From the IMG/VR virus record IMGVR_UViG_2778261027_000012: a stretch of DNA of 9,488 nucleotides. One strand, written 5' to 3'. This document shows, one piece after another, positions 5,592 to 5,615 of the stretch. The notes under the pieces are model-generated. The model had not been told where the DNA came from. It did not search any database and was given only the letters and a program-made list of their open reading frames with translations. Numbering within the stretch: position 1 is the stretch's first letter; every line of letters begins with the position of its first letter. Source of the DNA: a virus (Duplodnaviria > Heunggongvirae > Uroviricota > Caudoviricetes). The translations under genes and the position numbers were made by a program.

Positions 5592-5615
5592 CCGATATGG
5601 GAATTCCCATATCGG
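5592..5615. promoter_or_regulatory. Perfect 24-bp palindrome CCGATATGGGAATTCCCATATCGG of unknown function
   Basis: Exact reverse-complement symmetry over 24 bp with a GAATTC centre; no T-run follows, so not a typical terminator. Lies about 10 bp upstream of the candidate hok promoter -35. Confidence 0.4.

Follow-up and report, generated by a model that had tools for sequence, protein, structure and literature searches.

Why does a perfect palindrome of 24 bp stand just upstream of a toxin promoter in a prophage? Does it serve that promoter, mark an insertion, or come from somewhere else? These questions are raised by a stretch of 9,488 nucleotides of phage DNA (IMG/VR record IMGVR_UViG_2778261027_000012), here called the window, which is an E. 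coli O157-type prophage at ompW (OI-57/ompW prophage). A first-pass annotation of the sequence had placed the palindrome between an acquired gene (a "moron") and the promoter of hok, and had offered two explanations: a site for a dimeric regulator of the toxin promoter, or a recombination or insertion scar at the moron boundary. Comparison with other phages and bacteria points to another origin, in which the palindrome is probably the best-preserved piece of a ~40-55-bp relic of a KilA-N gene lying on the minus strand. At the hok locus of this prophage, the palindrome should be annotated neither as a toxin operator nor as a paa scar. For the hok locus the finding is an ordinary one, but the parent element in KilA-N genes is not.

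A perfect palindrome between paa and hok

Positions 4400-6200 of the window, used as a query, are 100% identical to 'PPompW' prophages of E. coli O157 and its relatives. The gene order is dicA/dicC, replication genes, a DUF1627 gene, paa/adfO, hok/gef, rem, a DUF968 gene, rusA, Q and three tRNAs. The tRNA genes lie at 9094-9334 (Met-CAT, Lys-TTT and Arg-TCT, according to ARAGORN and GenBank records), and only the first and the third are recovered by Rfam at the gathering threshold. The product of paa/adfO matches Pfam SBP_bac_11 at 5.5e-34. The features around the palindrome are the following.

4714..5472, plus strand: paa/adfO, an AcfC-family adhesin with a periplasmic-binding-protein fold, the upstream "moron" (annotation of 100%-identical phage records)
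5479..5502, plus strand: intrinsic terminator of paa, CGTCC TTCA GGACG and then a T-run (terminator scan)
5566..5567, no strand: right-hand junction of the paa cassette, approximate (window against loci L002, L003 and L004)
5581..5634, minus strand: putative KilA-N coding relic, YSKPFSPDMGIPISE*IQ (tblastn, DNA flanks, slot of the intact gene elsewhere)
5592..5615, no strand: perfect palindrome of 24 bp, CCGATATGGGAATTCCCATATCGG (from the sequence; matches the 22-24-bp palindrome of KilA-N genes)
5596-5611: 16-bp core of that palindrome, TATGGGAATTCCCATA
5626..5654, plus strand: likely hok promoter, with -35 TTTGCT at 5626-5631, a 17-nt spacer and -10 TAGGAT at 5649-5654 (by analogy with R1)
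5751..5963, plus strand: mok reading frame, with hok (gef) at 5808-5963
6032..6059, plus strand: terminator of the hok mRNA (terminator scan)

The palindrome is real and far beyond chance. Its arms (5592-5603 and 5604-5615) are 12 nt each and 100% complementary, with a spacer of 0 and GAATTC at the centre, so that a complementarity check fully confirmed the length, the core and the exact self-complementarity first reported; only ~6e-4 perfect palindromes of 24 bp would be expected in 9.5 kb (9488 x 4^-12). Even when three mismatches are tolerated, the window has a single match to the 16-bp core (0.05 expected). A dispersed repeat of the REP or MITE kind was rejected because the window holds a single copy and no more than 2 of all fetched loci have two copies. 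Where E. coli loci were inspected, the palindrome is found either upstream of hok or within a KilA-N gene.

Folded as RNA in a 51-nt context, either strand gives a G+C-rich stem of 10-12 bp closed by an AAUU loop; the two strands reach -21.2 and -19.4 kcal/mol (z ~ -4.3). Such a stem-loop is one part of an intrinsic, Rho-independent terminator; the other part, a U/T-tract, is missing, since no T-run lies 3' of the palindrome on either strand (what comes next is GCGAAAACGG on the plus strand; on the minus strand it is AATGAATTC). The terminator scan of the window made no call at the palindrome and called the paa and hok terminators only, which bears out the early view that the palindrome is unlikely to terminate transcription in this way.

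Two further inverted repeats were seen in the window. One, at 4522-4549, is perfect with 12-nt arms and a 4-nt gap (ATGTTGATTACA-nnnn-TGTAATCAACAT); it lies ~165 nt upstream of the paa start and is presumably the one that had been counted as the first palindrome. The other, at 5509-5526, is a perfect hairpin (ATGCCGC-GCCA-GCGGCAT) just 3' of the paa terminator, and it is part of the paa cassette, as both paa-bearing variants have it and paa-less prophages lack it.

The same palindrome inside KilA-N genes

When IMG/VR was scanned for the 16-bp core, about half of the matches listed were copies upstream of hok. Many of the other listed matches lie within open reading frames of the form ..(D/V)MGIPI(S/T)..KGG..QGTWVHP, in which Pfam recognises the KilA-N domain. 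In the KilA-N/BstA-like genes of E. coli, the sequence CGATATGGG(A/G)ATTCCCATATCG forms the codons of D-M-G-I-P-I-S, which lie in a loop of the KilA-N domain. For example, one such gene of an E. coli lambdoid prophage encodes 253 aa, with a KilA-N domain (Pfam 8e-27) followed by a C-terminal BstA domain (PADLOC 2.5e-20), and in PhiR5_2 the KilA-N/BstA-like gene stands downstream of cI, as bstA does in BTP1. The palindrome is also carried by KilA-N genes with C-terminal domains other than BstA. As a side observation, the window itself gives weak tblastn matches (E ~0.02-0.1) to a BstA-type C-terminal region (..LPYHLRRY..VP..F..LNE..) at 946-1062 on the minus strand; they are antisense to dicC and probably due to chance.

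The E. coli KilA-N/BstA-like gene, whose protein is of the WP_000200358.1 type, was found in 139 of 5,426 genomes, and no O157 strain is among the genomes listed. In 117 of these 139 genomes (the strain 405 type), the gene sits in the nin region as the direct upstream neighbor of hok, with the opposite orientation; among the KilA-N loci of IMG/VR, 16 of 80 likewise have the gene adjoining hok in antiparallel orientation. The slot of the 405-type gene, between the replication genes and hok, is the slot that paa or a small ORF takes in the lineage of the window. The 405-type allele has a perfect palindrome, CGATATGGGAATTCCCATATCG, situated 544 nt from the hok mRNA start.

A probable relic of a KilA-N gene

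Given that the palindrome, its flanks, its slot and its orientation all match KilA-N genes, we read 5581-5634 as the likely fossil of such a gene. The best-supported part is 5581-5619, whose minus strand reads SPDMGIPISE*IQ, the family sequence being S(S/R)DMGIPISELIQ; the in-frame stop replaces the Leu codon of the family motif ..DMGIPISELIQ. KilA-N proteins find this sequence in tblastn with E values of 0.003-0.05 per query. The homology of the coding DNA continues beyond the palindrome: one flank (GGAATGAATTCAGT against GGAATTAATTCAAT) is identical to a KilA-N allele at 12 of 14 positions and the other (TTTCGCCC) matches one KilA-N allele at 8/8. Under a best-of-39 null, such scores occur at ~1% of random positions (p ~0.01), so that this flank homology of ~12-16 nt per side is modestly significant, and no single allele in the sample matches both flanks. 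An intact KilA-N ORF of domain length is absent from 5581-5634, where ~13-18 codons with the in-frame stop are left.

Other relics of this kind exist. Loci L290 and L348 have longer ones (..ASERIQSVK), L102 has one upstream of two KilA-N genes, and the nin region of the Hafnia phage Pocitis76 has the antiparallel relic SDMGIPITE*FQ within a gap of 56 nt. It was also observed that the relic of the window (5581-5619, minus strand) and that of the Hafnia phage (L377 1500-1545) carry their stops (TGA and TAG) at the same Leu codon, which may be a coincidence or reflect a shared origin.

The palindrome does not depend on paa. When the spacer between paa and hok was compared by BLAST with 5,426 complete E. 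coli genomes, the full paa-type arrangement was found in ~575 of them, the palindrome region alone was also matched in genomes without paa, and the arrangement of palindrome and hok promoter was found in 725. The paa-less loci L002 and L003 have the palindrome upstream of hokD, 13 nt past the stop codon of a small ORF that encodes a hydrophobic peptide of 34 aa (MSDDISLAMEGALAVIAVVGVYCLVVFLMDRLGN). The homology between these loci and the window runs leftward across the palindrome to ~5568, which corresponds to the last codons of the 34-aa ORF (..CGC CTG GGG AAC TGA), and therefore the paa cassette joins at ~5566/5567, ~25 bp to the left of the palindrome. In L004, the second paa-bearing variant, a 22-bp deletion takes the left outer arm and halts exactly at the core. 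The palindrome was thus rejected as the boundary of the paa insertion, because homology with paa-less relatives is unbroken there and these relatives have the palindrome too. The proposal of a scar at the moron boundary fails in this literal sense but survives in spirit, as the palindrome looks like the scar of the KilA-N gene that uses the same slot in related prophages.

The history that these comparisons suggest is as follows. A KilA-N gene would once have stood between the replication genes and hok, antiparallel to hok, as it does in related lambdoid prophages. In the O157 ompW prophage this gene is gone, presumably by deletion or replacement, and what would be its relic now abuts paa and the 3' end of the small ORF on the left and the hok promoter on the right. 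The palindrome presumably has no role of its own at hok. Short remnants at mosaic joints are familiar from the nin region and the morons of lambdoid phages, where they reflect mosaicism of the Hendrix type. Like those remnants, the palindrome is a short non-coding leftover between swapped modules with a variable upstream neighbor; unlike them, it is trimmed around an element that appears to be under selection at the nucleic acid level in its parent gene family.

Signs of selection at the nucleic acid level

The peptide M-G-I-P-I alone forces complementarity of 10 of the 16 core bases, and the palindrome could be imagined to be a by-product of the protein sequence. This explanation was rejected on account of frozen synonymous sites, codon-complementary flanking residues and a reading in another frame in Bacteroidota. 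Across 21 distinct enterobacterial alleles, the stem codons GAT, CCC, ATA and TCG, which include rare codons, never vary synonymously, while the two codons with their third base in the 4-nt centre of the palindrome are variable; the mean codon entropy of the enterobacterial KilA-N alleles is 1.0 bit over 84 comparable codons. In 29 distinct sequences, for which protein similarity was the sole criterion of retrieval, 6 of the 10 stem pairs have changed on both sides, as in TACGGGAATTCCCGTA (M to T together with I to V) and in CCATGGGAATTCCCATGG. None of 500 shuffles reached this number, and slid controls collapse.

Compensation is also visible in the residues on both sides of G-I-P. In a set of 71 distinct motifs from 120 diverse proteins, the inner pairs are codon-complementary in 60 cases (29.5 expected; M/I..I, T..V, V..T and A..A) and the outer pairs in 52 (29.3 expected; D/E..S, V..T, S..D, A..A, I..I and N..L). 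The permutation test gives p < 5e-5 for each; it ignores relatedness, yet several distinct compensatory classes are represented. In addition, KilA-N genes of Bacteroidota contain the same DNA palindrome at the homologous place in another frame (..LLEERYGNSHIAP..VIKGG..QGTW), within a gene recognized by Pfam as KilA-N at 1.8e-19. Where KilA-N lineages lack the motif, the same codons form perfect hairpins of other sequence, such as CGTTACGA-AGAAAA-TCGTAACG, CAAAGGGA-GAAAAA-TCCCTTTG, AGCCGAACTTA-GAAATT-TAAGTTCGGCT, CTATGGGA-AAA-TCCCATAG and CCGTTAGGC-TAAAAT-GCCTAACGG, each of which is individually improbable in a 40-nt window. Stem pairing in KilA-N genes is 94% Watson-Crick at pair 11, 65% at pair 12 and random at pair 13; this extent of 11-12 bp per arm agrees with the 24-bp length in the window.

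Frozen synonymous sites, compensatory changes, second-frame reading and different hairpins at the same position lead us to conclude, as far as sequence comparison can tell, that the palindrome in KilA-N genes is selected as nucleic acid, be it DNA or RNA. Compensatory codon changes evidently preserve the element, and one lineage preserves it by using another frame. In this KilA-N subfamily, which is abundant in phages and includes BstA-like defence genes, a nucleic acid element inside the gene thus shapes the protein through codon-complementary pairs of residues. Quasipalindrome correction by template switching can generate compensatory changes from arm to arm, and can extend palindromes, without selection. 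It could contribute to the arm-to-arm compensation in KilA-N palindromes, but it fits poorly with the conservation of a 20-mer across phyla and with alternative hairpins at the same KilA-N codons.

The hairpin element of KilA-N genes is apparently undescribed in Rfam and in searchable papers. Rfam gave no match to the palindrome in the window, either at the gathering threshold or at E<=10, and none over the KilA-N gene at E<=5. A full-text literature search with the palindrome sequence returned nothing relevant, a search combining KilA-N, palindrome and binding site returned no paper, and no paper listed by a broader, loosely matched search on KilA-N and hairpins mentioned KilA-N.

Two or three different palindromes with GGGAATTCCC at the centre adjoin one another in some loci (L446 ~4440-4500, L389 ~6920-6990, L103 ~13850-13920 and L401 ~2610-2670). 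These cyanobacterial and other loci include, for example, ATACGGGAATTCCCGCAT beside the canonical palindrome, and in L103 the neighboring palindromes fall within one long ORF (..DMGIPIS..VTGIPVS..).

Copies outside KilA-N genes

Does the palindrome have a function where it stands free of a KilA-N gene? The exact 20-mer GATATGGGAATTCCCATATC was found in 82 stretches among bacterial contigs sampled at one genome per species, where ~0.5 would be expected, and its hosts include Cyanobacteria, Bacteroidota, Chloroflexi, Patescibacteria, Alpha-, Beta- and Gammaproteobacteria, Spirochaetes, Firmicutes and others. Within these 82, 51 copies are inside KilA-N ORFs. The remaining 31 have no KilA-N gene in the 8-kb locus, a number to be compared with ~0.5-5 by chance; some fall in the linkers of phage proteins other than KilA-N (Rha, AAA_24), and others are hairpins between genes. 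Shorter matches were treated differently. Dozens of chance 16-mer matches are expected among tens of millions of hairpins, so only 20-24-mers and KilA-N-anchored evidence were used. That all unrelated 16-mer copies make up one functional family was rejected, as hairpins with TATGGG at the top of the stem and an AATT loop match by chance.

Virulent phages also have the palindrome. At least 60 Dhillonviruses of E. coli carry a 24-mer, GCGATATGGGAATTCCCATATCGG, that does not differ from the one within the BstA-like KilA-N gene of E. coli. It lies ~20 nt past the helicase-primase gene, on the margin of a ~530-bp non-coding region that is packed with the iterated motifs GCGCGYATTGGTTGCC and GCGGGACA and looks like a replication origin, and it is part of a 54-nt unit present in 0, 1 or 2 copies depending on the isolate. 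The repeats were observed in L369 (1990-2580, minus strand) and L370-L376 as ATTGGTTGC(C/A) x3-6 and GCGGGACA x7-8, with the variant TGGGGATCCCCA in the Dhillonvirus CEC_Kaz_2018. A separate observation concerns an Alcaligenaceae MAG (positions 1-75 of L412 and L451), in which the palindrome is followed by GGGTTCGAGTCCCGCGGGCGGC, resembling the T-arm and acceptor end of a tRNA; here the palindrome may take the place of the long variable arm.

These copies bring up the strongest rival to the relic reading, namely that the free-standing palindrome is itself functional as a candidate recognition site, in the form of DNA or hairpin, for KilA-N-domain proteins. The orphan at hok would then be a stand-alone copy of a deeply conserved KilA-N hairpin element, and such free copies could be decoy or self-marking sites that give immunity against KilA-N/BstA-type abortive infection by other prophages, or sites linked to replication. 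We consider this unlikely, although well worth bearing in mind. The iteron-rich, origin-like setting of the Dhillonvirus 24-mer, its identity with the E. coli copy and the excess of exact 20-mers outside KilA-N genes all favor it. So does the tightness of the relics: they are cut closely around the palindrome in several independent contexts, and the deletion in L004 spares the core. Together with the 31 outside copies, this is a hint that free copies were kept or captured because they serve some function and are not just neutral debris, although part of the tight-relic pattern is ascertainment, the search having used the palindrome itself. On the other side, many sister phages have no such site, and the core upstream of hok is conserved no better than its flanks. 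The distribution in E. coli does not fit easily either, with the orphan in 725 and the KilA-N gene in 139 of the 5,426 genomes and no O157 among the listed carriers of the gene.

The closest described parallel, which favors such a site, comes from BstA. BstA is a prophage abortive-infection protein with a KilA-N(-like) N-terminal DNA-binding domain; it blocks phage DNA replication, and an anti-BstA (aba) DNA element that lies within the BstA locus neutralises it (Owen et al. 2021, PMC8585504). The aba element mapped in BTP1 is 63 bp long, spans the bstA start codon and has terminal CCCGCC direct repeats (PMC8585504). The likeness is that of a KilA-N(-like) defence protein whose own locus holds a short cis DNA element, and the palindrome-bearing E. 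coli genes resemble bstA further in their BstA-type C-terminal domain and in the position of the PhiR5_2 copy. However, aba has a different sequence at the start of the gene and no dyad symmetry, BTP1 bstA is without the palindrome, and the palindrome, unlike aba, tracks the canonical KilA-N domain whatever C-terminal domain follows. These differences count against the recognition-site reading and led us to reject an "orphan aba element" as an identification, leaving an analogy only. A regulator of the KilA/Ant kind encoded in the nin region, Roi of HK022, reportedly has a binding site within its own gene (Clerget and Boccard, 1996), which would be a similar case of a cis site in coding sequence. 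If the element were the cognate site of KilA-N proteins, it would be a first clue to the targets of DNA-binding domains that are still poorly understood, and it would bear on how phages mark themselves or evade KilA-N-based abortive infection.

The palindrome and the hok locus

If the relic is set aside, the palindrome could still act at hok as RNA or as DNA. As an RNA hairpin in rightward read-through transcripts, it might, behind the upstream gene, stabilise 3' ends or form a barrier to processing, and so shield the hok promoter and the exact 5' end of the hok mRNA from transcription that arrives from upstream. The stable hairpin formed from either strand agrees with this, as do the position of the palindrome 13-20 nt past a stop codon in paa-less prophages and Dhillonviruses and the fact that several unrelated copies are terminator-like hairpins (L404, L423 and L026, the last a plain terminator). 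Such a role is nevertheless quite improbable for the window, where the palindrome is followed by no U-tract and paa has a terminator of its own, and sister loci do without the site.

Any role as DNA depends on the promoter. The likely hok promoter aligns with conserved upstream regions of hok in many prophages, and the 5' end of the mRNA is likely at about 5661; both placements follow, by analogy, the hok/sok system of plasmid R1, together with the Rfam sok/hok match that begins at 5661. A consensus promoter scan of the window did not call this weak promoter. As had been stated, the palindrome ends 10 nt before the -35, and its dyad centre is ~57 bp upstream of the predicted hok start. It thereby adjoins a typical promoter-leader-mok-hok unit of the kind known from hok/sok loci (R1 hok/sok, hokW of 933W, hokA-E), but it lies outside the conserved locus, as the Rfam sok/hok model matches 5661-5810, and it is missing in most homologues.

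For example, 933W has no palindrome: its upstream gene ends in a stop codon that the same hok promoter and leader adjoin directly. In mEp460 the small ORF is found, again without the palindrome. Among 67 distinct upstream contexts, assembled from an unbiased sample of IMG/VR anchored on the hok leader (TGCTGCGGGTGCTTGAGGCT) and from other hok loci, the palindrome or a degenerate form was present in roughly one third and absent from the rest. The loci without it (933W, those of the mEp460 type and many other prophages) have an otherwise near-identical promoter and leader. Purifying selection on the orphan palindrome was not detectable in this sample, where the core has stayed no more constant than the flanks, in accord with the relic reading. 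Moreover, the distance from the core to the anchor in the hok leader is 42-43 nt in the lineage of the window and 61 nt in L024, L074 and L346, a shift of 18 nt relative to the promoter from one lineage to the other. A conserved cis element of hok/sok was rejected on the grounds of the absences and of the Rfam model, and an operator at a fixed position relative to -35/-10 on the grounds of the spacing.

The proposed operator for a dimeric regulator of the hok promoter, attractive for its perfect dyad so close to the -35, is accordingly the least probable of the readings, and a very unlikely one, since many hok loci have the same promoter without the palindrome, the spacing shifts, the palindrome occurs in other contexts, and the apparently intact arrangement has it inside a gene far from the hok start. 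The first of these findings is the very condition that the first-pass annotation had named as refuting its proposal.

The surroundings of the palindrome at hok are variable in other ways. What stands upstream of it differs (paa, the small ORF or another gene), and the cassettes there are flanked by direct repeats, for example GGGTAAAAACGG. Degenerate forms were found in L335 (GGGGATTCCC), L346 (GGGAATCCCC), L290 (GCGGGACTTCCCAC) and L348 (GTGGGAATCCCAC), and the left outer arm shows decay, with an A/C mismatch in L002 and a 1-nt deletion in L003. When L002 (2860-3060) is compared with L125 (2480-2520), the unit of 34-aa ORF and palindrome is seen to be flanked by the direct repeats GG(G)TAAAAACG(G)TT, a sequence that 933W has just once, in the absence of any cassette, which suggests that the cassette of small ORF and palindrome was gained or lost through the direct repeats.
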